In this document: one piece after another, positions 6,252-62,843 of the stretch
Position numbering within the stretch: the stretch's first letter is position 1
Layout of the letters: every line of letters begins with the position of its first letter
Origin: Planctomycetota bacterium
Lineage (GTDB): Bacteria > Planctomycetota > UBA8742 > UBA2392
NCBI GenBank assembly: GCA_027493625.1
Contig: JAOSKM010000001.1
Location: forward strand, 1,812,657-1,876,656
Direction of reading: 5' to 3'
Length of the DNA stretch: 64,000 bases
The notes under the pieces: model-generated
Databases searched by the model: none
What the model was told of the DNA's origin: nothing
What the model saw: only the letters and a program-made list of their open reading frames with translations
Translations under genes and position numbers: made by a program

Positions 6252-6307
6252 GGAGGTTGGAGGTCAGAGGTTAGAGGTCGGAGGTTAGAGGTCAGAGGTC
6301 GGGGAGG
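6252..6307. repeat. heptamer tandem array (GGAGGTY/AGAGGTY, about 8 units)
   Basis: Reads GGAGGTT GGAGGTC AGAGGTT AGAGGTC GGAGGTT AGAGGTC AGAGGTC GGGGAGG. Confidence 0.9.
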
Positions 6308-6333
6308 ATGTACCGCAATCGGTTTGTGAAGTT

Positions 6334-6360
6334 CGCCTGCCGCCTGCCGCCTGCCGCCTG
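6334..6360. repeat. heptamer tandem array (CGCCTGC, about 4 units)
   Basis: Reads cgcctgc cgcctgc cgcctgc cgcctg. Confidence 0.9.
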
Positions 6361-6372
6361 TCACGCCATCGG

Positions 6373-6403
6373 CCGCGCGCTTGCGCTTGCGGCTCCTGTT
6401 CCT
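6373..6403. repeat. 31-nt dispersed repeat core (copy 1 of 2)
   Basis: ggccgcgcgctTgcgcttgcggctcctgttcc matches 40990-41020 with one mismatch. Both copies lie just 3' of minus-strand genes. Confidence 0.85.
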
Positions 6404-6454
6404 GCCTCCTGCTTCCTGCCTCCTGCCTCCTGCCTCCTGCTTCCTGCTTCCTGC
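6393..6454. repeat. heptamer tandem array (TCCTGCY, about 9 units) abutting the STAS gene stop codon
   Basis: Reads CTCCTGT TCCTGCC TCCTGCT TCCTGCC x3 TCCTGCT x2 and runs into the stop codon at 6454-6456. Confidence 0.9.
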
Positions 6455-7293
6455 TAATACACGTAGAAGAATTCCTCCACCGTGTGCTCCATGGGCGGCT
6501 CGATCTGCTGCCAGCCGGAGTCGATCTTCAGCAGCGTCATCAACTGCTCATAGTGCAGGCGGTCGCGGAAGGTGATCTTCTCCGAGACCACGCCGGTGGG
6601 CACGTCGCTGGCCCACAGCTCCAGGTCCTTGAAATCAAAGCCCTTGGCGCGCAGCCAGGCATGGAACTGGTGCAGCTTGTCGAAGGTGCTGTGGGTCGCG
6701 CCGCAGCCGCAGTTGTGGCGGCGCAGCAGCACGTAGGCCGCGGCGTGCAACTCGTTGCGCCGCTCGCCCTCGTGCACTTCCATGGTGCTGGCGCGGCTGG
6801 GCGCCTTGGGCGGGTGGCTGTTCAGGTCCACGGGCACGATCTCAAGCAGCCCTTTCGGCCCCATCTCGAGGCTCTTCACCTTGCCGTCGGCGTAAATGTC
6901 GATACGCCCCGCCGGGTTGGGCACAAAGGGCGGCACGAAGCCCAGCAGCACCGAGTGATAGGTGCCGTCCTGGGCGCTGCTCAGTACCCGGTGCTCGATG
7001 GCCTTGGCCGCGCCGTACACCTCGAGGTAGCTGCGCACCACCGGCGGCGGGTCGCAGATCACGAACTGGCGGTTGTACTTCTCGGCCACCTTGATCAGGT
7101 CCAGCAGCGTGGCGACGGCCGCGGAGTCGATCTGTTCAACCTGGTGCAGGTGCAGGATGCGGTGCCCGTCGATCTCGAACAGCTTGCGCTGCCTGATGTA
7201 CTGCTGCAGGCGGGGCACCAGCACGTTGTCAACGCGGGCGGGCAGCGTGGTGACGACGGCGCGGAAATCGCGCGGGATGGTGATTTCGGCCAT
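6454..7293 (-). CDS. STAS (anti-sigma antagonist-like) domain protein with uncharacterised C-terminal domain
   Basis: AGGAG precedes ATG 7293. The N-terminal ~110 aa have a STAS-like pattern (LDLIKVAEKYNRQFVICDPPPVVRSYLEVYG). I do not recognise the C-terminal ~130 aa (HNCGCGATH...FFYVY). Confidence 0.55.
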   Translation of the reverse strand: MAEITIPRDFRAVVTTLPARVDNVLVPRLQQYIRQRKLFEIDGHRILHLHQVEQIDSAAVATLLDLIKVAEKYNRQFVICDPPPVVRSYLEVYGAAKAIEHRVLSSAQDGTYHSVLLGFVPPFVPNPAGRIDIYADGKVKSLEMGPKGLLEIVPVDLNSHPPKAPSRASTMEVHEGERRNELHAAAYVLLRRHNCGCGATHSTFDKLHQFHAWLRAKGFDFKDLELWASDVPTGVVSEKITFRDRLHYEQLMTLLKIDSGWQQIEPPMEHTVEEFFYVY

Positions 7294-7332
7294 GGCGGGG
7301 CTCCTGTGTACAGGTGCTAACCGCGGGAGAGC

Positions 7333-9141
7333 CTAGTTTGTTCCGCGCCCCGCAGCAGCAGCCAGGTTGGGCTCGCTTTCGCCGGCGCCCGACTCGAGGT
7401 TGCGCAGGGCCTGGCGGCGCTCCTCCCAGCGGCCGATGCGGGCGTCGATCACGTTGACGGTGTGGTTCTTGATGCGCCGCAGGGCGACCACGATGTCGCT
7501 GAACACCATGCCCGCCAGCGCCTCGCAGCGCCCCTCGCGCACGCGGGCCAGGTGGGCGTCGCGGATCTCGTCGGCGCGCACGCCGATCGCGTCCGCCAGC
7601 CGCACCAGCTCGCGCACTTCGTCGTCGGTCATATCCACCTTCTGGTGGGTGATCACGAACTCGGCAGCCGCCTTCAGGAACTCGCCGACCCGCGCGAACA
7701 GGTCGTCAAGCTCCTGCCATGCGTCGTCTGAGAACTTCAGGTTGTCACGGAACATGCGGGAGCGGTACTTGGTCAGGCTCTGGCAGTAGTCCACCACGCT
7801 TTCCAGCTCGTCGCTGATGCGGATCAGCGCGTAGCCGCGCTTGGCCTGCTCGGCCGTCATCGGCAGCTGCATCACCTCGGTGATGAACAGCGTGACTTCC
7901 ATCTGGATGTTGTCGGTGACCTGCTCCAGGTGCTCGACCTGCTTGAACAGGTCAGGCTGGTCGGCCTGCAGGCGCACGTACTTCGTGGCGTCGCGGAAGG
8001 CGTCCAGCGTGACGTCGCCCATCAGCCGGATTTCGCCCTCGGCCTCTTCCAGTGCCAGCTCGGGCGCGATGTTGGACATGTTGCCCGAAAGCTTCAGGCG
8101 CTTCTTGCTGCGCTTGCCCTTGTCCGGCTTGAGCCATACCACCAGCTTCACCAGCAGCGGCAGCAGCGGCAGGAAGAACAGGTTGTTGGTGAGGTTGAAG
8201 CCGCTGTGGCCCGCGGCGATCTTCATCATGATCAGCGGGTCCACGCCTTCCGCGGCGCCGGTGCCATCCACCTTGAACAGGCCCGAGATGATGCCGGGCA
8301 CGCCCTCGACCACGGTCTCCACGGCGCCGACGTACCAGGGGAAGATGATCACCATCACCGTCACGCCGATCACGTTGAACATGATGTGCGCGTAGCTGGC
8401 GCGCTTGGCGTCGATGTTGCCGCCGATCGCCGCCAGGTGCATGGTGATGGTCGTGCCGATGTTCTCGCCCAGCACCAGTGCTGCCGCGGTGTGGTAGTCG
8501 ATCTGGCCCGTGGCCGCCAGCGACATGGTGATCGCCAGCATCGCCGAGCTGCTCTGCACGATAAAGGTCAGCGCGCAGCCCAGCACCACGCAGGCCAGGA
8601 TCGAGAGGATGTTGTCGGCCTGGATGATCTTCATCAGGCCCTGGAACTCCTCACTGCCCGCCAGCGGCTTGAAGCCGCCCGACATGAACTCGAGGCCGAT
8701 GAACACCATGCCCAGCGCGATCAGCACCTTGCCGATGGCCTTCCACTTCATCGACTTCGCGAAGAACATCGGCACGAAGCCGGCGCCCACCAGCAGCAGG
8801 CCGTATTTGCCGATCTTCACGGCGATGATCCAGCCCGTGATGGTGGTGCCGATGTTGGCGCCCAGCACCACGCCCACAGCCTGCGTCAGGTTCATAAGAC
8901 CGGCGTTAATGAAGCCGACCAGCATCACGGTGGTGACGCTGCTGGACTGCACGATCACGGTCAGCAGCACGCCCACGCCCATGGCGACGACGCGGTTGTT
9001 GGTGAGCCAGCCGATCAGCTTGCGGATGAAGTCGGATGCCAGAGCCTGCAGGCTTTCGCTCAGCAGCTTCATGCCGAACAGGAAGATGCCCAGGCCGCCG
9101 AGAACGGTGTAGGCGAGGGTGAACCACTTGCCGGCATCCAT
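7333..9141 (-). CDS. Na/Pi cotransporter family protein with C-terminal PhoU-like domain
   Basis: Two Na/Pi-cotransporter repeats are present (LIGWLTNNRVVAMGVGVLLTVIVQSSS; GCALTFIVQSSSAML), followed by helical PhoU-like repeats. The likely start is MDAGKWF at 9141 inside ORF 7333-9201. Confidence 0.8.
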   Translation of the reverse strand: MDAGKWFTLAYTVLGGLGIFLFGMKLLSESLQALASDFIRKLIGWLTNNRVVAMGVGVLLTVIVQSSSVTTVMLVGFINAGLMNLTQAVGVVLGANIGTTITGWIIAVKIGKYGLLLVGAGFVPMFFAKSMKWKAIGKVLIALGMVFIGLEFMSGGFKPLAGSEEFQGLMKIIQADNILSILACVVLGCALTFIVQSSSAMLAITMSLAATGQIDYHTAAALVLGENIGTTITMHLAAIGGNIDAKRASYAHIMFNVIGVTVMVIIFPWYVGAVETVVEGVPGIISGLFKVDGTGAAEGVDPLIMMKIAAGHSGFNLTNNLFFLPLLPLLVKLVVWLKPDKGKRSKKRLKLSGNMSNIAPELALEEAEGEIRLMGDVTLDAFRDATKYVRLQADQPDLFKQVEHLEQVTDNIQMEVTLFITEVMQLPMTAEQAKRGYALIRISDELESVVDYCQSLTKYRSRMFRDNLKFSDDAWQELDDLFARVGEFLKAAAEFVITHQKVDMTDDEVRELVRLADAIGVRADEIRDAHLARVREGRCEALAGMVFSDIVVALRRIKNHTVNVIDARIGRWEERRQALRNLESGAGESEPNLAAAAGRGTN

Positions 9142-9275
9142 GCTGTCGCTCCAGTGTCGTCGGCGACAATAGCGAGCGGACCCCGCCGGATTAAAGAGCA
9201 TGCCAAGGAAATGTTAACCGGCCTCCGCGCGCCCCTGCTGACAGGCGGCCGGGGGACGCTAAAACCATAACGGCC

Positions 9276-13663
<4,388 letters not shown>

Positions 13664-13667
<4 letters not shown>

Positions 13668-13684
13668 GGACACGCGGCCGCGGT
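13664..13684. repeat. REP family A half copy (GTAG-GGACACGCGGCCGCG)
   Basis: The left arm and loop are identical to the full copy at 25830-25851. The right arm is lost. Confidence 0.6.
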
Positions 13685-13750
13685 AACCAAGGCCCGGGAT
13701 GCCCCTGTCCGACAAAGCCTTGGCGAAGTCGGAAATCCCGGGCGAATCAG
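13685..13750. repeat. REP family C copy with 30-nt insertion in the hairpin
   Basis: aaccaaggCCCGGGATGCC[30 nt]AATCCCGGGCGAATCAG compares with 19200-19237. The insert itself forms a tccgac/gtcgga stem. Confidence 0.65.
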
Positions 13751-13926
13751 AGCACCTTCATGGTTGGCCTGCAGGACAACGGCCCCAAAAGGGCTCCACT
13801 AAGGTAGCCGGGCGTATTCGCGCCCGGAGTTGTCCGGCCGTGTTCTCAGGCGCTCGAAGGGCGGCCTTCACCGCGCATCGCACTCTTCAGGCGGCCCTGC
13901 GGGCGCGCCTTCCGGGGCCATGGACA

Positions 13927-13950
13927 CCGGGGGCTTACGCCCCCGGCTAC
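13927..13950 (-). repeat. RAYT-type REP relative (GTAG + CCGGGGG-CGTAAG-CCCCCGG on minus strand)
   Basis: It has the same CGTAAG loop and G5/C5 stem as the hairpins flanking the RAYT gene (40257-40276, 40817-40836), with the arms swapped. Confidence 0.55.
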
Positions 13951-14402
13951 CGTAGCTGGGCCCTGCGGGCCCGAACTGCTGCAAACGAACCCTGAACGTG
14001 CTCAAGCTGTTCACTCACTGCGCCCGGCTGCAGTGCAACTGCGGTTGCCCACCAAGGACACCAAGGTTCACGAAGAAAAGCATTAGCCACGCGGGGGCGT
14101 GAAGGGCTGAGCGTTGCCCGGCCTTCACTTTTGGGTCTGAGCGGGAAGCAACGCCAGGGCGCCATGGTGCGCCACGGCTCTATCGTTGCCGCAAGTCGAT
14201 TGGACAATGGATGCACAGGCCACGGAAAGGCCGTGGCGTTCATGGCGTCATGGCGTTGGATGACGGTCCCTGAACACGAACCGTGTCCGAGCTGCGCAGG
14301 GCTCTTCGTTCCTTAGTTCCTTCGCGTTGCAGATGCAGTTGCAGTGCTTCGTGAACTTCGTGTGCTTCGTGGAGGATCGCTTCTTGCAGCCGGTTGCGGG
14401 GC

Positions 14403-15698: not shown

Positions 15699-15759
15699 CT
15701 GGAGTCCCGGTGTCCCGGGCGACCATCATAGCACACGCGCAGGAAGCAGGGCCAGCGGC

Positions 15760-17098: not shown

Positions 17099-17172
17099 GT
17101 AGGGATACGCTGCCGCGTGTCCCTGCGAAGGGCGGATGTTCCGTGCGGGGACACGCTGCCGCGTGTCCCTAC
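17099..17172. repeat. two REP family A hairpins (GGGAYACGC-TGCC-GCGTGTCCC)
   Basis: Hairpins at 17101-17124 and 17147-17170. GTAG flanks lie at 17099 (+) and 17172 (-). Confidence 0.85.
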
Positions 17173-17315: not shown

Positions 17316-17553
17316 GGTTATCTCCGGGCGGATACCTTAACTATCGGCGCGACACGCCCGGCCCCTGTGCGGGATTTCTGGCTGAAATGTGGGGAAAATG
17401 AGGAAGCGGTGGCTGGTGGTTAGTGGCTGGATGGGCGCCGTTTCCAGCCACCAGCCGCTAGTACAGCGTCAGGCAAGCAGTCCGGCAGTTGGCCCATGTT
17501 CGGCGTCTGTTGCAGGGGACTCGCCGCCGCCCGGAAACAACAAACTGCAAAAT

Positions 17554-18724: not shown

Positions 18725-18826
18725 GGGGGCATGGTAGCAGCAAGCAGGGTCAGACGTAGGGGCCGCCCCAGGTGGCGGCCCGGGGCGGGCACATGGGCCC
18801 GCCCCTACAGACGCGCTACAGACGCG

Positions 18827-24242: not shown

Positions 24243-25712
24243 ATGTCCATGCGAGATCATTCGGCAAAGCCGAACTTGCCGCAGAAAAGCACTGCTTTTC
24301 AAGGCAAGTTCCAGGTCTACAGCAAGCAGCACCTCGAGACCTTGCCCCAGCTGCAGAAACTGACACCCGACCACCGCCTGGCCATGCGCGCCGTGGCGGA
24401 AGTGCTGCCCTTCCGCGTGAACAACTATTTGGTGGAAGAGCTGATCGACTGGGACAACGTCCCCAACGACCCCGTCTTCCAGCTCACCTTCCCGCAGCCC
24501 GGCATGCTGGCCCGTGAAGACTTCGGCCTGCTGTGCGGCATGCTCAAGCGCAACGCCCCCGCGGCCGAACTGGCAGCCGAGGTCAAGCGCATCCGCTATT
24601 CGCTCAATCCGCACCCGGCCGGGCAGAAGTCGCTAAACGTGCCGCACGAGAACGGCCAGCCCGTGGCGGGCATGCAGCACAAGTACCGCGAAACGGTGCT
24701 GTTCTTCCCCATGGCCGGCCAGACCTGCCACGCCTATTGCACCTACTGCTTCCGCTGGCCGCAGTTCGTGGGGCTGGACGACATGAAGTTCGCCAGCAAA
24801 GAGGCAGCCGGGCTGGTCGAGTACCTGAAAGCGCACAAGGAAGTCACCAGCGTGCTGATCACAGGCGGCGACCCGATGATCATGCGCACGCAACTGCTGC
24901 GGCAATACGTCGAGCCGCTGCTGGGCCCCGGGCTTGAGCACGTGGCAAGCATCCGCTTCGGCACGAAGGCACCGGCCTACTGGCCCTACCGTTTCACCCA
25001 GGGCGAAGACGCCGACGACCTGATGCGCCTGATTGGCGAAATCCGCGCCGCGGGCAAAGACGCGGCCATTATGGCCCACTTCAGCGTGCTGCGCGAACTG
25101 CAGACCGAGGTCGCCCAGGCGGCCGTGAAGCGGCTGGTGGGCGCGGGCGCGACGGTGCGCACGCAGGCGCCGCTGATCCGGCACGTGAACGACAACGCGG
25201 ACAACTGGGCGCAGATGTGGCGCAAGCAGGTCAGCCTGGGGGCGATCCCGTACTACATGTTCATCGAGCGAGATACCGGGGCGCGCGGCTACTTCGAGGT
25301 GCCCCTGTGGCGCGCCTACATGATTTTCACCGAGGCCTACCGGCAGGTGACCGGCCTGGCGCGCACGGTACGCGGCCCCAGCATGAGCTGCACGCCGGGC
25401 AAGGTGCTGATCAGCGGCGTGGCGGAGGTGAAGGGGGAAAAGGCCTTCGTGCTGAAGATGCTGCAGGGGCGCGACCCGGCCTGGGTGAACCAGGTGTTTT
25501 TCGCCAGGTACGACCAGCGCGCGGCGTGGATGGATCAGCTGAAGCCGGCCTTCGGCGAGCAGGAGTTCTTCTTCGAGGAAGGCATGCGCCAGATGCTCGA
25601 AAGCGGCGAGGCGCGCGTGTGGCTGCCCACGGAAGTGGACGCCCTGGAAGAAACCTGGCGCATGGAAAGCGTAGAGCCCGACCACGAACACGACCGCAAG
25701 CGCGACAAGTAG
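24243..25712 (+). CDS. KamA-family radical SAM protein (lysine 2,3-aminomutase-like), paralog 1
   Basis: AAGGAG RBS. The CHAYCTYC (CxxxCxxC) cluster lies within AGMQHKYRETVLFFPMAGQTCHAYCTYCFRW. The stop TAG is inside a GTAG-REP. Confidence 0.8.
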   Translation: MSMRDHSAKPNLPQKSTAFQGKFQVYSKQHLETLPQLQKLTPDHRLAMRAVAEVLPFRVNNYLVEELIDWDNVPNDPVFQLTFPQPGMLAREDFGLLCGMLKRNAPAAELAAEVKRIRYSLNPHPAGQKSLNVPHENGQPVAGMQHKYRETVLFFPMAGQTCHAYCTYCFRWPQFVGLDDMKFASKEAAGLVEYLKAHKEVTSVLITGGDPMIMRTQLLRQYVEPLLGPGLEHVASIRFGTKAPAYWPYRFTQGEDADDLMRLIGEIRAAGKDAAIMAHFSVLRELQTEVAQAAVKRLVGAGATVRTQAPLIRHVNDNADNWAQMWRKQVSLGAIPYYMFIERDTGARGYFEVPLWRAYMIFTEAYRQVTGLARTVRGPSMSCTPGKVLISGVAEVKGEKAFVLKMLQGRDPAWVNQVFFARYDQRAAWMDQLKPAFGEQEFFFEEGMRQMLESGEARVWLPTEVDALEETWRMESVEPDHEHDRKRDK

Positions 25713-25851
25713 GGACACGCTGCCGCGTGTCACGCACCACAACCGGGGACAGGCACGTTCCGTGCCTGTCCCCATTCCGCGTTCATGGCACGTAGGGACA
25801 CGCTGCTGCGTGTCCCCGGATGGCGGGCAGGGACACGCGGCCGCGTGTCCC
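25709..25851. repeat. cluster of four REP family A hairpins
   Basis: Hairpins at 25712-25733, 25745-25773 (GGGGACAGGCAC-GTTCC-GTGCCTGTCCCC), 25795-25817 and 25830-25851. Confidence 0.9.
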
Positions 25852-26972: not shown

Positions 26973-27150
26973 GGGATCTCCGGTCTGGTCGCGGGAGGGG
27001 GATCGCAACCAGTGGTGTATGATCGGGGATGCTAGCAGGTTGGTATGGCGGATTCGACGGTTCGCCGCTGCCGACACACAAAATTTTGTGGTGGTGGGCC
27101 ATTCGCGCCAAATCTAACCATCCAGTTACACCCCATAAGGACCCCCTTGG

Positions 27151-27186
27151 GGATTTTGGATTTTCGATGTTGGATTTTGGATTGGG
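27151..27186. repeat. heptamer tandem array (GGATTTT-type, 5 units)
   Basis: Reads GGATTTT GGATTTT CGATGTT GGATTTT GGATTGG. Confidence 0.85.
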
Positions 27187-34811: not shown

Positions 34812-34822
34812 GTTATCAGGCA

Positions 34823-34871
34823 GGAGGCGGGAGGCGGGAGCTAACTGCAGTAACTCCCGCCTCCCGCCTCC
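34823..34871 (+). terminator. perfect 18-bp-stem hairpin built from heptamer repeats, 3' of ftsK
   Basis: ggaggcgggaggcgggag / ctcccgcctcccgcctcc. The loop is centred on palindromic actgcagt. It is followed by ...gcctttatt. Confidence 0.6.
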
Positions 34872-34900
34872 AAACTCCCGCCTTTATTGGAGATGACCTA

Positions 34901-38949: not shown

Positions 38950-39003
38950 GTCCGTGGGGGCGCGTCACACAGCCTTCGCGGCGTTTGGGATCATGGCAAC
39001 AGC

Positions 39004-39087
39004 GAATTACCAATTACCAATAACCAATTACCAATTTCCGAGGGGGTCTCGGGACAATTGGTAATTGAAAACTGGTTATTGGTAATT
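39004..39087. terminator. long hairpin built from AATTACC-type heptamers between convergent genes
   Basis: aattaccaataaccaattaccaatt pairs with aattggtaattg-aaaa-ctggttattggtaatt. An inner ccgag/ctcgg stem is also present. Confidence 0.6.
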
Positions 39088-39106
39088 TGCTGTTCAAGCC
39101 AGCTGC

Positions 39107-39546
39107 CTACAGGCTGCCGGACGCTTCGGCCACGCTCAGGCCAACGTACAGGACCGCGCCGATCACCTGCCAGCTGATGCCGATGATGATGCCGGCCAGC
39201 GCCAGACCTTCGCCCGCCTGGCGACGCTTGGCCTCAGCCATCCCGATCGCACAGCAGATGATTCCCGGCATGGACGTACAACCCAGCAGCGCCAGCCAGA
39301 ATCCGGCCGTCACGATGCCGGGCGTGATGCCCATCTGCGGATTAGCCATGCCGTAGGGATTGGGCCCCTGGCCGCCGTACTGCGGCGGGTATGGGACGGG
39401 TCCCTGCGGCGGCCCCTGGTACGGGCCGCGCGGGTAGTTGCCGCCCACGGGCGGGCCCTGGTACGGGCCCTGCGGGTAGTTGCCGCCGACCGGCTGCTGT
39501 GGGTTGTTCTGGGGCTGGTAGCCCCCTGCTGGTTGTAGCCGGCCAT
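39107..39546 (-). CDS. DUF4190-like membrane protein with Gly/Pro/Tyr/Gln-rich N-terminal repeats, split by a 1-nt frameshift
   Basis: AGGAGA RBS before ATG 39546. MAGYNQQG|GYQPQNNPQQPVGGNYPQGPYQGPPVGGNYPRGPYQGPP... reads through if the C5 run at 39522-39526 is C6. The TM core reads GIVTAGFWLALLG...LALAGIIIGISW. Confidence 0.65.
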
Positions 39547-40229: not shown

Positions 40230-40863
40230 GCCTGCGGAGCAGGCCAACAACCGTTAGCCCCCGGCGTAAGCCGGGGGTATCGGAGCACCAAAGATTCCAG
40301 AGCCGCGGAGCGGCGACACAACTCATTCGCCAATGAACTCCGGGTCACCAATGAAGTCATACTTCTCCAGCAACCGCCGCAACTCTTCCTGCAAGGAAAC
40401 CGTAGCGTGGTGCTCCTGCTGGTTCTTGATGTAGTCCACGACCATGCCGACATGGCTCTGGCTGATGGAGAAGCCGCCATAGCCTCGCTGCCAGCCGAAT
40501 TTCGATGTTCGCAACTCTTCGTTCATGTGGCGGGACGAGTTCGCCTTCAGCTTGTTGACCACGTCCGCCAGCGCCAGCGTGGCGGGTAAATCAATCAGCA
40601 GGTGTGTGTGGTCGGAGACGCTGTTCAGGCGATGCAGGTAGACGTTCAGGTTCTTGAGCACGCCGACCATGTAACCTTCGAGCTTGGGTTTGAGGTCCGG
40701 CGTGATGATTGCGGTGCGGTCTTTGGTCGCGAACACAAGGTGCACCAGCAGCCGGGTGTAGGTATGCGCCATTTGTGTCGCCGCTCCGCGGCTCGGGTGA
40801 ACGGGCGGCATGATACCCCCAGCTTACGCTGGGGGCTAACGGTTGTTGGCCTGCTCCGCAGGC
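40230..40863 (-). mobile_element. RAYT unit: Y1 transposase gene bracketed by nested inverted repeats
   Basis: The outer 52-bp IR is 40230-40281 / 40812-40863 (50/52, the two differences are compensatory in a hairpin). The inner perfect 20-bp IR is 40302-40321 / 40773-40792. Confidence 0.8.
40323..40772 (-). CDS. IS200/IS605-family Y1 (HUH) transposase homolog, REP-associated (RAYT-like)
   Basis: MAHTYTRLLVHLVFATKDR...SDHTHLLI (HUH-type) ...FGWQRGYGGFSIS (Tyr region) ...QQEHH. The start is at 40772 inside ORF 40323-40811. Confidence 0.85.
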   Translation of the reverse strand: MAHTYTRLLVHLVFATKDRTAIITPDLKPKLEGYMVGVLKNLNVYLHRLNSVSDHTHLLIDLPATLALADVVNKLKANSSRHMNEELRTSKFGWQRGYGGFSISQSHVGMVVDYIKNQQEHHATVSLQEELRRLLEKYDFIGDPEFIGE

Positions 40864-40989
40864 GGGATACTCGATGAGTCGTCGCAAAGCCGGGGAGGTC
40901 GGGATGGCTGCGACCTGAGCGGACGGGTAGGTTGCGGACTCCGCGGCCGGGACGTTTGCGATCTTCGCAAACGCCAGCGATACGAGACG

Positions 40990-41020
40990 GCCGCGCGCTG
41001 GCGCTTGCGGCTCCTGTTCC
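40990..41020. repeat. 31-nt dispersed repeat core (copy 2 of 2)
   Basis: ggccgcgcgctGgcgcttgcggctcctgttcc. It is followed by a degenerate 7-nt periodic tract. See 6373-6403. Confidence 0.85.
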
Positions 41021-41039: not shown

Positions 41040-42104
41040 TTAGCGCCTTGAGGCGTTCTTCTTTTTTTCCCACTGGCGGCAGGCATCCACCAGCTCGTCG
41101 ATGTCGCCGGCCATCACCTTGGTCAGCGGCAGGCTTACCTTGGCGCGGTGGTCTGTGCAGCGGTCCTGCGGGAAGTTGTATGTGCGCACCTTGTCGCCGC
41201 GGCCGCCGCTGCCGACCATGTTGCCGCGCATCTCGGCCATGGCGCGGTCGCGCTTTTCCTTCTCGAGGCGGTACAGCTTGCTCTTCATGATGCGCAGGGC
41301 CTCGTCGCGGTTCTTGTGGAAGCTGGGCGTGCTCTGGCAGTCCACGAACAGGCCGGTGGGCAGGTGCCGCATCTGGCAGCGCGAGTTGGTCTTGTTCACG
41401 TTCTGGCCGCCGGGGCCGCCGGAGCGCGCGGCCTTGATCTCGAGGTCGCTTTCCTTGATCTCGATCTCGACGTCTTCCATTTCCGGCAGCACGGCCACGG
41501 TTGCCAGGCTGGTGTGAATGCGCCCGGCGCCTTCCGTGCTGGGCACGCGCTGCACGCGGTGGCCGCCGCCCTCGTACTTGAACCAGCGCCACACGCCCTC
41601 GCCCTTGATGCGGTAGGTGCCGTTCTTCAGGCCGCCGACTTCGGACTCGACTTCGTCCAGCATCTCGAGCTTGAACTTGTGGTGGGCGCACCAGCGGGCG
41701 TAGTTTTCCATCAGTTCGCGGGCGAACAGGGTGGCCTCGTCGCCGCCTTCGGCGCCGCGGATTTCCAGGATGACGTCGCGGCTGTCGTCTTCGTCATCCA
41801 GCAGGATCAGGTCCTGGGCCTCGGTCAGCTGGCGGTCGTGGGTGGCCTTCAGTTCCTCGAGCTCGACCTCGGCCAGCTCCTTCATCTCGGAATCGGCGGC
41901 CGGGTCTTTCAGGATTTCCTCGCTGCCGGCGATCTGCTGCTTCAGCGCGACCAGCTGGCGGTAGGCCTCGGCCTGTTCGCGCAGTGATCCGCGCTCGCGC
42001 TGGTATTGCGCGAACAGCTTGCTGTTCGAGTAGACCTCGGGGTCCTCGATCAGCTTGCCGAGCTCGTCGTAGCGCTCGGCCCGTTTTTTCAGCAGTTCGA
42101 TCAT
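41040..42104 (-). CDS. prfA: peptide chain release factor 1
   Basis: The RF1-type tripeptide is in RVQRVPSTEGAGRIHTS, and the GGQ motif is SGGPGGQNVNK. The frame is uninterrupted. Confidence 0.9.
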   Translation of the reverse strand: MIELLKKRAERYDELGKLIEDPEVYSNSKLFAQYQRERGSLREQAEAYRQLVALKQQIAGSEEILKDPAADSEMKELAEVELEELKATHDRQLTEAQDLILLDDEDDSRDVILEIRGAEGGDEATLFARELMENYARWCAHHKFKLEMLDEVESEVGGLKNGTYRIKGEGVWRWFKYEGGGHRVQRVPSTEGAGRIHTSLATVAVLPEMEDVEIEIKESDLEIKAARSGGPGGQNVNKTNSRCQMRHLPTGLFVDCQSTPSFHKNRDEALRIMKSKLYRLEKEKRDRAMAEMRGNMVGSGGRGDKVRTYNFPQDRCTDHRAKVSLPLTKVMAGDIDELVDACRQWEKKKNASRR

Positions 42105-42120
42105 GGCGATACCAGTTTAC

Positions 42121-42192
42121 CAGAGGTCAGAGCTCAGAGGTCGGAGGAAGCAAGTGTCGTGGGGCCGAATCCCTGACCTCTGACCTCTGAAC
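42121..42192. terminator. hairpin built from CAGAGGT-type heptamers between rpmE and prfA
   Basis: cagaggtcagagctcagaggtcgg ... ccctgacctctgacctctgaac. Confidence 0.55.
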
Positions 42193-42256
42193 TCCGGCCC
42201 CTGAATACGAACCGGCGCAGGGCATTCGCCCCACGCCGGTGAACGATTCCGCGTTG

Positions 42257-46251: not shown

Positions 46252-46276
46252 GCGCGACCCTGGGGAAGTAAAAGGA

Positions 46277-46353
46277 GGGACAGGCACCTCGGTGCCTGTC
46301 CCTCTTCACTTTGCGCGCCCGTGCCGTGCACACAAGGGGGACAGGCGCGTTCC
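46277..46353. repeat. REP family A: one full hairpin plus a half copy
   Basis: gggacaggcac-ctcg-gtgcctgtccc at 46277-46302. gggggacaggcgcg at 46336-46353. Confidence 0.85.
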
Positions 46354-47769: not shown

Positions 47770-47868
47770 GGGACGGGCACGGAATGTGCCTGCCCCTGTC
47801 CATGGCTGCTGTGGGGCGTGCCATGGGTGTGCACAGTAAAGAGGGACGGGCACCAAGGTGCCCGTCCC
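47770..47868. repeat. REP family A: degenerate copy plus perfect GGGACGGGCAC-CAAG-GTGCCCGTCCC
   Basis: Copies at 47770-47796 and 47843-47868. Confidence 0.8.
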
Positions 47869-47879
47869 TGTGCGCGGCT

Positions 47880-49082
47880 TTACCTTCTTCCGCCGCCGCC
47901 GCCGCCGCCGCCCCTGCCGCCGCCGCCGCCTCCGCCGCCGCCGCCCCTGCCGCCGCCGCCGCCTTGCCCTCTACCTTGTCCCCGCCCTTGTCCTCCGGCC
48001 TTTCCTTGCCCCCTGCCCTGCCCGGGACCGCCGTTGCGGGCCTGGTTCCGACCGCGCACCCTGGCCCGGTTGCGTGCGGGGTTGGGTCCGCCCGGCCCTG
48101 CGCGGCCGTCATCGGCGTCGTCCTCGGGGTCATCCTTGGGCGGCCTGGTGGTCTTGTCGGGCGGCAGTATCGGCGGGTCGTCGTTCGGTTTCTCGACAAT
48201 CGGCGGCGGCGGCGGTACTTCGGACTTCTTCTCGACCGGCGTCTCCACCTTCACCTCTTTCGGCTTCTCAGGCCGCGCCTCGACTGCAGCCTCGGTTTTC
48301 TTTTCAGCCCGCGGCGTGCTCTCCGGTTCCGGTTCCGGTTCGGGCTGCTGCACGGCCTCGGTTTTCCTTTCGGCCCGCGGCGTGCTCTCCGCTTCCGGTT
48401 CGGGCTGCTGCGCGGCCTCGGTCTGCCCGCGCCCGCCTCTCCAGCGCAACGCGCGTCCGAGGCCCATGCCCAGCCCCGGCCCCTGGCCCATTCCCGGGCC
48501 GCCGGCATTGGTCGCCGGCTGCTCCACCACGCCGCTCTCCGCCTTGCCCTCCAGGCTGCGGATGTAGGCCACCAGGTGGCCGATCTGCTCTTCACCCAAC
48601 GCCTTGCCGTAGGCCGGCATGGCAGACTGGAAGGGTGCAAACCCGCCGCCCTCGCTGATGCGCCACCACAGATAGTCGTCGTTTACACCGGCCAGGAATG
48701 CACTGTCTGCCAGCTTGGCCGCCGCCGGGCGCAGCCCCTGCCCCATCGGCGAGCCGGCGCCCGCCGCGCCATGGCAGCCGGAACACTGGCGCGAATAGAT
48801 CGCCCTGCCCTCCGTTGCGTCACCGGGCGTCTTGCCCTTGAACCGCTCCGGCGCCTGCGGGCGATCAAGCGTCGCGGTCGCCGACGCCTTCTGCGGCGCC
48901 GGCGTGCCGGGCGGCGTGACCGCCGTGGACGTCGGCGGGGGCGCCGTCTGCGGCAGAACCGAGGCCGTGGTCTGCGGCGCAGCCTGTGACGCCGACTCGG
49001 GCTGGTCGCCGCTGCAGCCGGCAACAAGCAGCCCGGCAGCCAGCAGCAGGCCGGCCGACACAATGAGGTGCTTTACTTTCAT
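47880..49082 (-). CDS. c-type cytochrome lipoprotein with long disordered tail ending in Arg/Gly (RGG, poly-Gly) repeats
   Basis: Lipobox LLVAGC. Heme site CSGCH with the distal ...AMPAYG. The start is at 49082 inside ORF 47880-49139. Confidence 0.7.
   Translation of the reverse strand: MKVKHLIVSAGLLLAAGLLVAGCSGDQPESASQAAPQTTASVLPQTAPPPTSTAVTPPGTPAPQKASATATLDRPQAPERFKGKTPGDATEGRAIYSRQCSGCHGAAGAGSPMGQGLRPAAAKLADSAFLAGVNDDYLWWRISEGGGFAPFQSAMPAYGKALGEEQIGHLVAYIRSLEGKAESGVVEQPATNAGGPGMGQGPGLGMGLGRALRWRGGRGQTEAAQQPEPEAESTPRAERKTEAVQQPEPEPEPESTPRAEKKTEAAVEARPEKPKEVKVETPVEKKSEVPPPPPIVEKPNDDPPILPPDKTTRPPKDDPEDDADDGRAGPGGPNPARNRARVRGRNQARNGGPGQGRGQGKAGGQGRGQGRGQGGGGGRGGGGGGGGGGRGGGGGGGGRR
47890..47960. 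repeat. (CCG)n trinucleotide tract encoding poly-Gly/Arg at the cytochrome C-terminus
   Basis: cgccgccgccgccgccgccg cccct gccgccgccgcc... Confidence 0.9.
48289..48414. repeat. 66/60-nt in-frame tandem duplication within the cytochrome tail
   Basis: The units gcctcggttttc(t/c)ttt..cgggctgctgc(a/g)cg encode QQPEPE(PEPE)STPRAE(K/R)KTEA twice. Confidence 0.85.
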
Positions 49083-49382: not shown

Positions 49383-50723
49383 ATGCCGATTGCGCCTCAA
49401 CTTCGCTTCTACACGGCGCGTGACATCGACAGCCTGCCGCAGCTGCAGGCCCTGCCCGCCGAGCAGCGCCTGGACATGAAAGCCGTCGCGGCCGTGCTGC
49501 CCTTTCGCGTCAACCAGTACGTGATCGACCAGCTGATTGACTGGTCGAACATCCCGTCCGACCCGATCTTCCAGCTCACGTTCCCCCAGCGCGGCATGCT
49601 CAGCGAGCACAACTTCAAGCTGATGCGCGAGCTGATCGCCAAAGGCGCGCCACAGGCCGAAGTGAAAGCCGCGGCCGAGAAAATCCAGCGTTCCCTGAAC
49701 CCGCACCCCTCGGGCCAGATCAACCTGAACGTGCCGCTGGACGCCCAGGGCAAGCGCCTGCCGGGCATGCAGCACAAGTACCGCGAAACCGTGCTGTTCT
49801 TCCCGATGGCCGGCCAGACCTGCCACAGCTACTGCCAGTACTGCTTCCGCTGGGCGCAATTCGTGGGCCTGCAGGACCTCAAGTTCGCGGCCCGCGAGGC
49901 CGAGCAGCTGGTCGAGTACCTGAAGCGCCACAAGGAAGTCACCAGCGTGCTGTTCACGGGCGGCGACCCCATGGTGATGGGCGCGCCCGTGCTGCGCCGC
50001 TACATCGAGCCGCTGCTGGGCAAGGGGCTCGAGCATGTCCAGAGCATCCGCATCGGCACCAAGGCGCCGGCGTACTGGCCCTATCGCTACACCAGCGACG
50101 CGGACGCCGACGACGTGCTGCGGCTGTACGAGCAGGTGCAGGCCTCGGGCCGCACCATGGCGCTGATGGTGCATTACTGTCATCCGCGCGAGCTGCAGAC
50201 CGAGGCCGCGCAGGCGGCGCTGAAGCGCATGCGGGATTCGGGCGCCGAGGTGCGCTGCCAGGCGCCGCTGATCCGGCACATCAACGACAACCCGGAAACC
50301 TGGCGCGAACTGTGGGACCTGGAGGTACGCCTGGGCGCGCATCCCTACTACATGTTCGTGGAGCGCGACACCGGCGCGCGCGGCTATTTCGAGGTGCCGC
50401 TGGTCAAGGCCTACGAGATCTACTCACAGGCATATCGCTCCGTGACGGGTCTCGCACGCACGGTGCGCGGGCCGGTGATGTCCTGCATGCCGGGCAAGGT
50501 CGTGGTGGATGACGTGACGGAGTACGGCGGCGAGCAGGTGATCGTGCTGAAGATGATCCAGGGCCGCAACCCGGAGTGGGTGAACCGCACGTTCCTGGCA
50601 AAGCGCGACGACAAAGCCACCTGGTTCGATCAGCTCAAGCCCGCCGGCAAACCCTGGTTCTTCGGCGACGAGCTGCAGCAGATGATCGAAAGCGGCAACG
50701 CCCGGCCGTGGGAGAACGTGTAG
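49383..50723 (+). CDS. KamA-family radical SAM protein, paralog 2
   Basis: GGAGG lies 5 nt upstream of ATG 49383. The CHSYCQYC cluster is present. The protein is colinear with 24243-25712. The stop TAG is inside a GTAG-REP. Confidence 0.8.
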   Translation: MPIAPQLRFYTARDIDSLPQLQALPAEQRLDMKAVAAVLPFRVNQYVIDQLIDWSNIPSDPIFQLTFPQRGMLSEHNFKLMRELIAKGAPQAEVKAAAEKIQRSLNPHPSGQINLNVPLDAQGKRLPGMQHKYRETVLFFPMAGQTCHSYCQYCFRWAQFVGLQDLKFAAREAEQLVEYLKRHKEVTSVLFTGGDPMVMGAPVLRRYIEPLLGKGLEHVQSIRIGTKAPAYWPYRYTSDADADDVLRLYEQVQASGRTMALMVHYCHPRELQTEAAQAALKRMRDSGAEVRCQAPLIRHINDNPETWRELWDLEVRLGAHPYYMFVERDTGARGYFEVPLVKAYEIYSQAYRSVTGLARTVRGPVMSCMPGKVVVDDVTEYGGEQVIVLKMIQGRNPEWVNRTFLAKRDDKATWFDQLKPAGKPWFFGDELQQMIESGNARPWENV

Positions 50724-53121: not shown

Positions 53122-53172
53122 GGCTCCGCCGCGTGAGACTCGCGTCGCAGTATACAGGCGCCAAGGCCCGCA

Positions 53173-53306
53173 GGGACAGGCACCCTTTTCACGGTGCAAG
53201 TTCGGCTTTGCTGGTGCGATGAACGCTGACCGGGGACAGTCACCAAGGTGACTCTCCCCGGTTGTGGGAAATGAAGAGGGGACAGGCACGCAACGTGCCT
53301 GTCCCC
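53173..53306. repeat. three REP family A copies
   Basis: 53173-53197 (half copy), 53231-53262 (ggggacagtcac-caag-gtgactctcccc) and 53278-53306 (perfect). Confidence 0.85.
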
Positions 53307-53325
53307 GGTCGTGGCTGATCTGCCG

Positions 53326-56497: not shown

Positions 56498-56505
56498 GAA
56501 AGCGA

Positions 56506-56538
56506 CCGGGGACAGGCACGTTCCGTGCCCGTCCCCGG
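56506..56538. repeat. REP family A hairpin between convergent genes
   Basis: ccggggacaggcac-gttcc-gtgcccgtccccgg. Confidence 0.85.
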
Positions 56539-56557
56539 TTGCGGTCCGGTTTGCCGG

Positions 56558-57379: not shown

Positions 57380-57441
57380 GGGTACGACCTGCGCTGTCGG
57401 GGGGCCCCAAGCCTAGCGCGGGCAGGCGCGCCGGTCCAGAG

Positions 57442-59499: not shown

Positions 59500-59507
59500 C
59501 GATTCCT

Positions 59508-59807: not shown

Positions 59808-60030
59808 TGGCCTCTCGGCTTCGCCGCAACTCCTCCCGAACTTCCGACCACGGTGTACCCGGACGCGGATCGTCTTGCATCCGTTTGAGTCGCTGCTCAA
59901 TGACGTCCTGGTGCCAATCGGGAACCGGGAGATCATCAGGCGCAAAGCTGCTCCAGATCATTTCGATCAGGCGCATGCGCTCTTCAACCGATAGTTTTGC
60001 CACTTGTGATTCGGTAAGCGGCGCAGCCAT
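59788..60030 (-). CDS. addiction-module antitoxin component (TIGR02574-like)
   Basis: 80 aa, LSVEERMRLIEMIWSSF...PDWHQDVIEQRLKRM...PWSEVREELR. Confidence 0.7.
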   Translation of the reverse strand: MAAPLTESQVAKLSVEERMRLIEMIWSSFAPDDLPVPDWHQDVIEQRLKRMQDDPRPGTPWSEVREELRRSREANANSDS

Positions 60031-60079
60031 GCAAACCTCCTGGCGCCATCATAGCATGCACGCACTTCCGCTACAGCGC

Positions 60080-61108: not shown

Positions 61109-61160
61109 GGGCCGGGAATATAACGGCAGAGCCAATCAACGCCAGAGCAAGCAAAACAGA

Positions 61161-61184
61161 AGCCCGCCATGCCAATGGCGGGCT
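61161..61184 (-). terminator. intrinsic-terminator-like hairpin with T-tract about 50 nt upstream of pheS
   Basis: On the minus strand: agcccgccat-tggc-atggcgggct followed by TCTGTTTTGCTTG. Confidence 0.55.
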
Positions 61185-61264
61185 TTGGGTCAGCGGTGAG
61201 TTGACTTGCATGCGATCGGATCGTTCGGCTTCAGACAAGGCGCGGAGCGCCTTCACAGCGGAAG

Positions 61265-61494
61265 CCCCCACCGAACGCCTCTGGCGTTCGGTGGGGGTAC
61301 TCGGCGGAAGGAAGAACAAAGGCGCTGAGCGCCGACACACCATCCGTACCCGCCGCCAGAACCGTTCGGCCGCAAGCGGCCCTTGTGCCAGCGCTCCGCG
61401 CCTTGGGTAACTTGATTGCCGCAATCCCCCAGCGTCTCGGTCGCTGGAAGCGACCTCGAAGCTGGGGGCTTCCATTGTGTCGGCGCTCCGCGCC
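61265..61494. repeat. cluster of RAYT-IR-related REP sequences without a transposase gene
   Basis: 61321-61340 resembles the inner IR (16/20) and 61475-61494 also does (18/20). 61426-61468 is CCCCCAGCG..GCTGGGGG with an expanded loop. 61265-61297 is a perfect hairpin. The GGCGC(T/G)(C/G)(C/A)GCGCC motif occurs four times. Confidence 0.6.
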
Positions 61495-61560
61495 GCACTG
61501 CCAAACGGTGATCCACCGATCTCCGCTGCCTTGCGTTCGCGGCATGCTTGATTCTACGCA

Positions 61561-61586
61561 AAGCCCCGGCTTGGCAGCCGGGGCTT
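61561..61586. terminator. hairpin 3' of the kinase gene, T-rich on both sides
   Basis: aagccccggc-ttggca-gccggggctt, followed by gtgttttgtg on the plus strand and tgcgtag on the minus strand. Confidence 0.5.
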
Positions 61587-61613
61587 GTGTTTTGTGCGCT
61601 GTCATTCGCCCGC

Positions 61614-62687
61614 TTATCGGCCGCCGGGTCGGGGCGTGCCGGGCCTTGGGTTGCCTTGGGGCGGCCGTGCCTGCACGTCTGAGCCTAGCGGCTTGGTGAA
61701 GCTTTGCGGGTCGTTGCGCGGCGGCGGCACCGCCTGGCTGCGCGGCACACCTGTATCGCTGAGCGACTTGACCTGCGGCGAGCTCGCGCGCATCGGCGCG
61801 CCGCTCATGGGCGCGGTGCTGTCCATCCCCGCGGAACGCAGCGCATCGCGCGCTTTCTTGAGCACCGCCAGCACGGCCGGGATGTTCGGTAGGCGGCGGC
61901 GCGGGTCCTTGGCGGTCATGGCGACCACGGCCTCGCGCAGCTCCTTGGGCAGGGTGTCGAAGGTCTCGCGCGGCATCTGCAACTGCTCGCCCACCACGTT
62001 CAGCAGCACGGCCATGGGCGTGGCGCCCTCGAAGGGCAGCGCGCCGGTGAGGAACTGCCACAGCGTCACGCCCAGGGCGTAGATGTCCACCCGGGCGTCA
62101 ACGTCCATGCTCTTGATCTGCTCGGGCGCCATGTAGTTCGGCGTGCCCACCACCTGGTTGCTGAGTGTCAGGGCCGTCGCGGTGTTGGTGATGCTGCGCG
62201 CCAGGCCGAAGTCGGTAACCTTCACCTTGCCGTCGCGCGCGATCAGGATGTTGGCGGGCTTGATGTCGCGGTGGATCACGCCCTGGTCGTGCGCCTCGCC
62301 CAGGGCGCGGGCCACGAAGCCGGCGATGTTCACGGCGCGCATGGGGCTGAAGCGCCCTTCGCGGTCCAGCAGGCGCTGGGCGTCCACGCCTTCCACGTAC
62401 TCCATCACCAGGTAGTAGACGCCGTGGTCACGGCCGACATCCAGCGTGCGCACGATGTTGGGGTGCTGCAGGCGGCCGCTTACTCTGGCCTCGCGCAGGA
62501 AGCGCTCAACCATTTCGCGCTTGCCGACGAACAGGTCGGGCAGCAGCTTGATCGCAACCATCATGTCGAGGCCCGGGTGGTGCCCCAGGTACACCGCCCC
62601 CATGCCGCCGCGGCCAAGGATGCTCTTGGCTACGACGTTGCCAAATGTCTGGCCGATGATGGGGTCTGAATGTTGGAGATCCGACAT
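61614..62687 (-). CDS. Ser/Thr protein kinase with Pro-rich C-terminal tail
   Basis: GRGGMGAVY, VIHRDIKPANILI, DFGLAR and GTPNYMAPE motifs. The start is at 62687 inside ORF 61614-62732. Confidence 0.85.
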   Translation of the reverse strand: MSDLQHSDPIIGQTFGNVVAKSILGRGGMGAVYLGHHPGLDMMVAIKLLPDLFVGKREMVERFLREARVSGRLQHPNIVRTLDVGRDHGVYYLVMEYVEGVDAQRLLDREGRFSPMRAVNIAGFVARALGEAHDQGVIHRDIKPANILIARDGKVKVTDFGLARSITNTATALTLSNQVVGTPNYMAPEQIKSMDVDARVDIYALGVTLWQFLTGALPFEGATPMAVLLNVVGEQLQMPRETFDTLPKELREAVVAMTAKDPRRRLPNIPAVLAVLKKARDALRSAGMDSTAPMSGAPMRASSPQVKSLSDTGVPRSQAVPPPRNDPQSFTKPLGSDVQARPPQGNPRPGTPRPGGR

Positions 62688-62745
62688 GCTGTGTTCCAGG
62701 GCCCGCGATGCATTATGCCGCACAAGCAACAATCCGGCTACGGGC

Positions 62746-62843
62746 GTTCAGGGGCCAGGTTTCAGGTGTCAGGTTTCAGGGGAAAAGCGGAGCCCGCAGG
62801 GAATCTGCCCTGCAACCTGCAAGCTGACCCCTGAAACCTGAAC
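62746..62843. terminator. compound hairpin built from CAGGTTT-type heptamers, 3' of the acyl-CoA dehydrogenase gene
   Basis: gtcaggtttcagggg pairs with cccctgaaacctgaa. An inner gcaggg/ccctgc stem is present. Both arms are 7-nt periodic. Confidence 0.55.

Follow-up and report, generated by a model that had tools for sequence, protein, structure and literature searches.

What generates arrays of 7-nt units in the spacers of a bacterial genome, with units that vary from site to site and frequently with a second array facing the first, and are such arrays kept for a purpose? The question is raised by a 64,000-nt stretch (the window) of contig JAOSKM010000001.1, from an uncultured wastewater Planctomycetota bacterium with a GC content of 66%. 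An earlier note, made from the letters of the window and a list of its open reading frames (ORFs), had described intergenic tandem heptamers in it and proposed that something creates them in situ and mirrors them. The data presented below confirm the excess of period 7 and indicate that the stems of the resulting hairpins are conserved. We propose that the arrays are heptanucleotide simple sequence repeats (SSRs) that grow in place by slippage, mostly as inverted pairs, and whose stems are selected at gene ends and between cistrons. To this reading as a whole we assign a probability of about one half.

Period, placement and folding of the arrays

Seven intergenic sites of the window, with nine arrays between them, display a 7-nt period, five of the sites as inverted pairs, one as a 226-nt imperfect hairpin and one as an unpaired array. 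Tandem Repeats Finder (TRF) reported arrays of period 7 or 14, with 3.1-9 copies, at eight loci. The features are listed here with the corresponding TRF arrays in parentheses.

6240-6465, minus strand: the whole 226-nt imperfect, 'beaded' hairpin formed from two outer arrays; minimum free energy -91.8, z -2.65
6252-6307: array of eight RGAGGTY units, the C-rich 3' arm (RACCTCY) of the minus-sense STAS to Na/H-exchanger transcript (TRF 6253-6302, and sequence)
6334-6360: 3.9 copies of CGCCTGC with 100% matches, located internally in the long hairpin (TRF 6334-6360)
6393-6455: nine YTCCTGC units (GCAGGAR in the sense RNA), abutting the STAS stop codon at 6454-6456 (TRF 6393-6455)
17408-17458: three imperfect units (GGTGGCT, GGTGGTT, AGTGGCT) and a shorter inverted partner, between the MlaD-like and aminotransferase genes
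27151-27186: direct array of five GGATTTT units, unpaired, in the divergent nrdR / DUF6288 spacer (TRF 27151-27183)
34818-34883: GGAGGCG hairpin, 7 nt past the ftsK stop, with arms 34823-34843 and 34851-34871 and one additional CTCCCGC unit (TRF 34818-34840 and 34854-34883)
38998-39094: AATTACC hairpin between the convergent pepN and DUF4190 genes, with arms 38998-39036 and 39056-39094 (TRF 39005-39036 and 39056-39087)
42120-42205: CAGAGGT / CCTCTGA hairpin between rpmE and the prfA start at 42104 (TRF 42121-42147 and 42171-42205)
62747-62843: NNNCAGG / CCTGNNN hairpin filling the spacer from the acyl-CoA dehydrogenase stop to the Ser/Thr kinase start (TRF 62747-62782 and 62809-62842)

Non-redundant TRF rows numbered 16 for period 7/14, as compared with 0-3 for each of the periods 5, 8, 10, 11 and 13; when only arrays of at least 2.8 copies were counted, the figures were 10 and 0-1, respectively. 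In these comparisons, period 7/14 was set against non-triplet periods. Two scans of our own detected arrays at period 7/14 and none at periods 4, 5, 8, 10 and 13, and dinucleotide shuffles yielded 0.0-0.2 arrays per period. The excess of period 7 claimed in the earlier note was thus confirmed by TRF, by both scans and by the shuffled controls, and its lead over the other non-triplet periods held in the window and in diverse loci, these being sampled loci rather than whole genomes. The statement that the period is always 7 proved too strict: period 7 is dominant, and other small intergenic arrays, with periods of 6, 8, 9 and 11 nt, are found at 6377, 14234-14371 and 18805. The second of these places, which holds mini-arrays of 6, 8 and 9 nt, belongs to an unusually long spacer (735 nt, 13668-14402) between convergent genes; this spacer also contains GC-rich hairpins and has no Rfam match at the gathering threshold. 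Rfam and tRNA scans of the whole window likewise gave no matches.

All heptamer arrays fall within the non-coding ~20% of the window, and several abut stop or start codons. Four sites are located between co-directional genes (STAS and Na/H exchanger; MlaD-like and aminotransferase; ribosomal protein L31 (rpmE) and release factor RF-1 (prfA); acyl-CoA dehydrogenase and Ser/Thr kinase), and there the arrays often occupy the spacer from the stop codon to near the next start. Of the remaining sites, one is between convergent genes (pepN and the DUF4190 gene), one directly follows ftsK and one is in the divergent nrdR spacer. The placement at gene ends noted earlier was therefore upheld, the names of the flanking genes being confirmed by Pfam. 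As an absolute count, the G-rich arm comes first in six cases and the C-rich arm in two, a difference that is not significant; arm order tells nothing about transcription, because the arm order of an inverted repeat is the same on both strands.

The mirrored arrangement described in the earlier note was upheld, five sites being inverted pairs, with two corrections: the array at 27151 has no partner and no fold (z -0.4), and the array at 6334-6360 is an inner array rather than a mirror arm. In the fold of the hairpin at 6.2-6.45 kb, array 6252-6307 pairs with array 6393-6455, giving 5-bp helices with 2-nt internal loops between them and hence a period of 7. The outer units differ (GCAGGAR and RACCTCY), and the variable unit positions correspond to G-U-tolerant or unpaired internal-loop positions. 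The repeat at 17408-17458 is below the TRF score threshold; its sequence is as the earlier note had read it, and it forms a hairpin on the plus strand (-39.5, z -4.15). The hairpin after ftsK has 21-nt arms that are 95% complementary (z about -6), and that between pepN and the DUF4190 gene has 39-nt arms with the non-repeat ends AACAGCGAAT and ATTTGCTGTT (z about -10 to -11). The arms of the rpmE-prfA hairpin measure about 28-35 nt (z -4 to -5), and the hairpin at 62.7 kb can pair in several registers (z about -2.6 to -2.7). The paired heptamer hairpins have stems of 20-40 bp and loops of 7-35 nt, and are devoid of a T-run. These dimensions, the missing T-run and the silence of a terminator scan led us to reject an identification as intrinsic (Rho-independent) terminators.

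The distribution of the arrays was assessed in three sets of loci. The nearest species-level genome is the metagenome-assembled genome (MAG) JAJVIO01 (locus L010), whose PepN is 94% identical and whose loci, with 90-95% nucleotide identity, are syntenic across window positions 25.4-46.3 kb; together with L180 and L185 (GCA_020638605.1) it makes up the close relatives. Further Planctomycetota from the same clade, with PepN 71-77% identical, formed the second set, and diverse loci of bacteria and archaea, 1.77 Mb in total, the third. Loci L012-L014 and L023 are free of arrays. A scan of metagenome contigs with PepN retrieved no close relative, the best match being 59% identical. Arrays of period 7/14 with at least 2.8 copies amounted to 10 per 64 kb in the window and 6 per 64 kb in the close relatives, as compared with 0 in 90 kb of same-clade Planctomycetota and 36 in 1.77 Mb of diverse loci, in which 7 is also the top non-triplet period. 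An inverted partner was present within 120 nt for 8 of the 13 window arrays and for all 7 arrays of the close relatives (together 15/20); in the other lineages (same-clade Planctomycetota and diverse loci) this was the case for 7/53, with 6/53 in a complement-only control. The preference for period 7 is thus general; the high density and the systematic pairing are properties of this lineage.

Loci from Bacteroidales MAGs (L050-L052; AT-rich, gut or rumen) contain 6-8 period-7 arrays per 20 kb, mostly unpaired, as well as period-8 arrays. Every period-7 array has a unit of its own (CTTTTGT, CTGTTGA, TTAGCCA, GTTGACC and others; for example at 14714-14810 of L052 and 1448-1509 of L050). They are an independent example of the same general phenomenon.

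Stability within the species and change between species

Since short-read contigs frequently end in or beside the arrays, we considered the possibility that the arrays result from reads mis-joined at low-complexity sequence during assembly or binning. Contigs of this kind (Logan L001-L009, L188 and L189) tend to break at the heptamer hairpins and at a 33-nt motif described below, and one contig extends exactly between the 34.8k hairpin's loop and the 39.0k hairpin's right arm. Yet the spacer at 6.2-6.45 kb is base-for-base the same in a contig of the Joint Genome Institute (JGI) that spans all 252 nt and, as far as the contigs reach, in seven Logan assemblies of other runs (eight assemblies in total). 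The 42.1k hairpin is identical in ten assemblies, the only single-nucleotide polymorphism among them being just outside the hairpin, and the 39.0k hairpin is identical in one other assembly. Furthermore, orthologous arrays are present in MAGs of three other species. The earlier note had staked its claim on the arrays recurring in independent assemblies; the agreement of 8-10 of them refutes an artefact, to which we give virtually no chance. In practical terms, the hairpins split short-read assemblies of this organism at predictable places.

The same comparison of assemblies served to look for the variation in unit number between strains that the earlier note had suggested examining. No unit-number polymorphism was found within the species in 10 assemblies (42.1k) and 8 assemblies (6.4k), though short-read assemblies could hide minor variants. 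Arrays that are invariant within a species are not contingency loci, and phase-variable contingency SSRs were rejected on the basis of these identical unit numbers.

Between species, the arrays change by whole units. L010 has one additional 7-nt unit in one arm of the 42.1k hairpin. In L185, whose ortholog of the 6.2k hairpin has the same architecture, the C-rich arm at 6.25k is 14 nt (2 units) shorter and the G-rich arrays are shorter and merged, the counterpart of array 6334-6360 being fused with its neighbour; both arms are longer in the window. Alignment of the 42.1k region revealed that the two arms are separate insertions around a spacer that is still recognisable in outgroups, in which the hairpin is absent. 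This suggested growth in place rather than the arrival of a ready-made element. At the 3' end of pepN, the exact position of the 100-nt AATTACC hairpin of the window and L010 is taken in outgroups by an ordinary hairpin, which is GC-rich and followed by a T-rich tail. Between rpmE and prfA, they have only a conserved terminator-like hairpin, which the window also keeps (at about 42206-42250, beside the heptamer hairpin). After ftsK, L010 has a wholly different 330-nt spacer, containing an AATTACC-type hairpin and other repeats, in place of the GGAGGCG hairpin.

The 39.0k hairpin is kept in L010 and L189 with a diverged loop. Imperfect units of its arms are retained in both the window and L010, and the apical mini-stem of the loop is preserved with a changed sequence (CCGAG..CTCGG versus CCGG..CCGG). 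Overall, arms differ between the window and L010 at 8/142 positions and loops at 16/41 (Fisher p = 6e-7). Fourfold-degenerate sites of pepN, which differ at 66/416 between the same two genomes, provided a reference: the arms are more conserved than these sites (p = 0.0014) and the loops less so (p = 0.0009). These findings show that the stems are under measurable purifying selection.

This result bears on the possibility that the hairpins are a neutral mutational by-product, that is, filler without a role, left by 7-nt-biased slippage and by template switching on quasi-palindromes. The chief point against it is that the arms are about threefold more conserved than fourfold-degenerate sites, whereas loops and flanks are not. 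In addition, imperfect units and mismatches are retained between species, both arms expanded jointly at 6.2k, and length polymorphism is absent in ten assemblies. Neutrality would fit with the diversity of the units, with folding that shows no preference for the sense strand, with the lack of an Rfam family and of a terminator signature, and with the gain, loss or overwriting of sites among close species. Taking both sides together, we regard a purely neutral origin as unlikely.

The unpaired array at 27.15k is matched in L010 by an array of five GGATNNN units of the same length and at the same place. Between the window and L010, the GGAT core differs at 1/20 positions and the three spacer bases at 11/15 (p = 3e-5), with flanks that are 100% identical; in L010, all five spacers differ from one another and the cores are perfect. 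Either a constraint on reading in register or replacement by another member of the family would produce this pattern.

We considered that the arrays might be bound in a 7-nt register by a reader (a protein acting on DNA or RNA) that recognises a core of 4-5 nt per unit, or might act as G-quadruplexes (G4) or i-motifs on units of the GGNGGNN type. Ribbon-helix-helix repressors read heptads on DNA, and cold-shock or OB-fold proteins cover about 7 nt of RNA. The core kept at 27.15k between nearly randomised spacers is what one would look for, as are the NNNCAGG units at 62.7k; 5/9 units are GGNGGNN-like, and in Xanthomonas, where unit positions 1-4 and 6 are conserved, the units give rise to G4 in vitro (PMC4692102). 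The cores, however, vary by locus (GGAT, CAGG, GAGGT, CCTGC, AATNACC), so that one reader cannot serve all, and the pattern at 27.15k is also obtainable by replacement, as stated. In the pairs, a complementary arm faces the G-rich one, which favours a duplex. As to G4, AATTACC, an AT-rich unit, cannot form it, nor can CAGGTTT and CAGAGGT, so that G4 is not the common denominator here; three-tetrad units of the GGGANTN type were not found, runs of three G occurring only at 34.8k (GGGAGGC). On balance, we consider this explanation very unlikely.

Upstream of nrdR, at about 27075-27090, we also observed the palindrome ACACAAAATTTTGTGT; the surrounding stretch shows 100% conservation with L010. 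The palindrome resembles an NrdR box, which would mean autoregulation.

Growth in place, copying between loci and their possible causes

In the model that we favour, heptamer SSRs with selected stems would arise in four steps. Starting from a short seed, direct or inverted, a spacer would acquire an array that lengthens in whole 7-nt steps by slipped-strand mispairing at replication. The opposite arm would follow, by intrastrand template switching on the hairpin or because pairing is selected for, with the outcome that both arms remain periodic and roughly balanced. The whole hairpin would now and then be copied to another spacer. Finally, purifying selection would hold the stems as stem-loops at gene ends and between cistrons, where they might act as transcript 3' ends, as mRNA-stabilising or processing hairpins, or as hairpins at the level of DNA. 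The idea that the arrays are made in situ and then mirrored is supported in part, by the whole-unit insertions and deletions between sister species and by the two arm insertions at rpmE-prfA; it had to be amended, as copying between loci also occurs.

The evidence for copying came from a comparison of the units. When grouped by rotation and strand, they fall into few families: AGAGGTC, GCAGGNG, AATTACC, GGATNNN and GGTGGYT. The AGAGGTC family is found at 6.25k and 42.1k, with arrays that are 92-95% alike over 19-25 nt, and the GCAGGNG family at 6.33k, 6.39k and 34.8k. The GGATNNN family occurs at non-orthologous loci in L010 and L180, the array at the 27k site of L010 resembling a hairpin arm at another locus in L180. 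Moreover, a hairpin at 8.4k in L010 is a paralogue of the AATTACC hairpin at the 3' end of pepN, including the non-repeat ends AACAGCRAAT...ATTYGCTGTT. The presence of this whole hairpin twice in L010 indicates that copying between loci takes place. The earlier argument that the arrays cannot be mobile copies, each locus having its own unit, does not hold for families that recur at non-orthologous loci and include a paralogous hairpin.

Could the arrays then be mobile hairpins of several families, comparable to MITEs (miniature inverted-repeat transposable elements) or to the hairpins formed by paired repetitive extragenic palindromic (REP) sequences (REPINs), and moved by a transposase such as IS200-like Y1? 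The two end-sharing copies in L010 lie at different sites and are what such movement would leave, the resemblances between AGAGGTC arrays and between L010 and L180 point the same way, and the window does contain, on the minus strand, a gene for an IS200-like Y1 transposase (40323-40811; match to Pfam Y1_Tnp with E = 1e-24). This gene, however, is flanked by inverted repeats of its own, which are different from the heptamer hairpins (52 nt, 40230-40281 and 40812-40863, 96% identical, each holding a CCCCCGGCGTAAGCCGGGGG-type hairpin), and L010, which retains the heptamer hairpins, does not have the Y1 segment (40230-40866, ~830 nt) in its syntenic region. For these reasons, Y1 was rejected as the main mover of the hairpins; the absence of the segment from L010 marks it as a recent insertion of an element resembling REP-associated tyrosine transposases (RAYTs). 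Neither a duplicated target site nor a clean boundary of insertion was seen; in the case of the two copies in L010, the one family with this MITE trait, a duplication is not recognisable, the orthologous spacer being wholly different. Two separate insertions around an ancestral spacer at rpmE-prfA, single-unit changes in place at orthologous arrays and a copy number of 1-3 per family also speak against mobile elements, which we consider quite unlikely to account for the arrays.

The window also contains REP-like palindromes, which are distinct from the heptamer hairpins. They are located at 17099-17172, 18756-18808, 25712-25851, 46275-46304, 47842-47869, 53278-53314 and 56503-56536 and belong to at least two sequence families (GTAGGGAYACGCTGCCGCGTGTCCC... 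and GGGACAGGCAC..GTGCCTGTCCC); some have T-rich tails and scored as terminator-like, and similar ones occur in L010, L021 and L185. A comparison of the window with itself retrieved the REP-like families, the heptamer hairpins not being among them. The 33-nt motif mentioned above, CGGCCGCGCGCT(T/G)GCGCTTGCGGCTCCTGTTCC, is present twice with 97% identity, beside the YTCCTGC array (6370-6402) and 3' of prfA (40988-41020). L010 has the motif as an inverted pair 3' of prfA (13844-13908), and the window has the Y1 element at the place of the second arm.

Several observations weigh against growth by slippage combined with selection on stems. The paralogous copies show that more is involved than growth in place. 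No change of unit number is seen within the species, which indicates that slippage is slow here and visible only between species. At rpmE-prfA, the heptamer hairpin is not a replacement, as the terminator-like hairpin persists beside it. The energy of folding is better for the sense strand at three sites, better for the antisense strand at five and equal at one; with no consistent advantage of the sense strand, a role in RNA is not demonstrated. A terminator scan of the window did not pick up the heptamer hairpins, which are without a U-tract. The model does not account for a step of 7 as opposed to 8 or 10. Lastly, the sample covers about 150 kb from four related genomes and not a whole genome.

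A bolder proposal is that the lineage possesses a dedicated process or reader, independent of sequence and with a fixed 7-nt step, that builds, mirrors and maintains hairpins at gene ends. One candidate would be a protein that binds nucleic acids periodically and reads a core of 4-5 nt every 7 nt; another would be an enzyme of replication or repair with a footprint that dictates the step. The proposal is allowed by the core and spacer pattern at 27.15k, by selected stems with fast-evolving loops, by the balanced growth of arms and by pairing that is restricted to this lineage; we look on it as a long shot. If it were true, the arrays would represent a locus-specific regulatory code instead of slippage debris, and the lineage would offer a natural handle on why intergenic repeats of prokaryotes prefer 7.

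Other candidates were dismissed. Mimicry of Shine-Dalgarno or anti-Shine-Dalgarno sequences would apply to only part of the units (GGAGG or CCTCC, at 6.2k and 34.8k). FtsK-orienting (KOPS) motifs, telomere-like addition and CRISPR-like arrays were set aside on reading the sequence.

A few further features of the window were recorded. Between 20000 and 24000, the GC content dips to 0.58 (about 0.66 elsewhere) and ORFs have a lower third-position GC; this segment may have been acquired horizontally. A paralogous gene pair, with ~81-89% nucleotide identity across ~1 kb, is found at 24475-25491 and 49567-50586; the first gene of the pair (24243-25712) has only a weak radical-SAM match. Additional repeats (a CCG/33-nt repeat, a 66-nt tandem repeat and a 42-nt in-frame repeat in the DUF4190 gene) at 47890-47964, 48289-48422 and 39407-39494 are probably low-complexity protein-coding sequence, unrelated to the heptamers.

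Relation to known heptamer repeats

The earlier note had considered the short tandemly repeated repetitive (STRR) sequences of cyanobacteria to be the only comparable class. We take the units of STRR1-3 to be CCCCAGT, TTGGTCA and CAACAGT; the best match in the window (AATTACC to TTGGTCA) was scored with one mismatch, which is at chance level, and the other units differ at 2-5 positions, so that an identity with STRR was rejected. The TAACTGA direct repeats of Beggiatoaceae and cyanobacteria, which precede start codons, were rejected as well, the nearest window unit being two mismatches off. More generally, comparison of the window units with GGGAATC, GGGGAYT and TAACTGA gave no match beyond chance. 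The cyanobacterial heptamers (STRR; GGGGAYT and TTTTGAA in Nostoc; a 'range of repeating heptamers' in Microcystis) resemble the present arrays in forming several intergenic families per genome, often near start codons; they differ in their units and phylum, and few of the repeats are paired in Nostoc.

Heptad operator arrays, such as those of omega of plasmid pSM19035 and the TTTTGAT repeats bound by ToxR/ToxT at ctxAB, share with the window arrays a strict 7-bp register and the use of direct and inverted units. They consist of one unit, bound by one protein, at promoters; the units of the window are numerous and mostly found at the 3' ends of genes, and only the array at 27.15k is in a promoter region. 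REP sequences and REPINs, which are associated with RAYTs, are likewise intergenic hairpins at gene ends and between cistrons. They are families defined by sequence (here GTAGGG..CCCTAC and GGGACAGGCAC..GTGCCTGTCCC) without an internal period, in contrast with the heptamer hairpins, which are defined by their period and have no common sequence.

The claim that STRR is the only analogue was contradicted by the literature, since tandem heptamers are widespread. They have been described as the most abundant intergenic tandem repeat in many prokaryotes, with 'no clear clue' to their function (Mori et al., bioRxiv 10.1101/309039). Heptanucleotides were the most abundant long SSR in the work of Mrazek (2007), as summarised in PMC4679880, and the idea of polymerase slippage or of a polymerase footprint is attributed to the same work in the summaries of PMC4679880 and PMC4692102. 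Several heptamer families per genome occur in cyanobacteria and Bacteroidetes (in part PMC4679880), and heptanucleotide families of Geobacter metallireducens have been annotated as putative regulatory elements (PMC2700814). The window arrays conform to this pattern, with at least three head-to-tail 7-nt copies, an excess of the period, intergenic location and whole-unit changes between relatives; as in other prokaryotes, 7 is the top intergenic period, units vary by locus and genome, and slippage is the proposed source. The difference resides in the pairing, found for 7/53 arrays in the diverse sample (control 6/53) and for 15/20 in this lineage, and in a density that is ~8x higher here.

The closest parallel is provided by Xanthomonas, whose genome of ~65% GC contains about 185 (GGGANTN)n arrays, with 70-75 cases in which two convergent arrays form inverted repeats (Rehm et al. 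2015, PMC4692102). In that genus, 83% are in the same gene context across two species, and lengths differ while the single or paired type is preserved (PMC4692102). The (GGGAATC)n / (GGGANTN)n arrays and those of the window are alike in being intergenic, in comprising typically ~4 units and in having some unit positions conserved and others free; close convergent pairs are common to both, and here too the pair type is preserved in L010 and L185. They are unlike in their phylum and in that one unit family dominates the Xanthomonas genome, whereas at least five families, including AT-rich units, are present in 64 kb of the window, where nearly all arrays are paired. Our search of the literature found no paper mentioning both Planctomycetes and heptanucleotide.

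We conclude that these repeats belong to a class already described, that of intergenic heptanucleotide repeats, and are Xanthomonas-like in their pairing. New are the phylum, the near-universal pairing, the coexistence of several unit families, among them AT-rich ones, and the measurable purifying selection on stems. Stem conservation and the coexistence of unit families argue that the repeats, at least here, are kept for their structure and not for a sequence motif or a G-quadruplex. With four related species, and outgroups that have plain hairpins at the same sites, the lineage provides comparative material on slippage, mobility and selection for heptamer repeats in prokaryotes.

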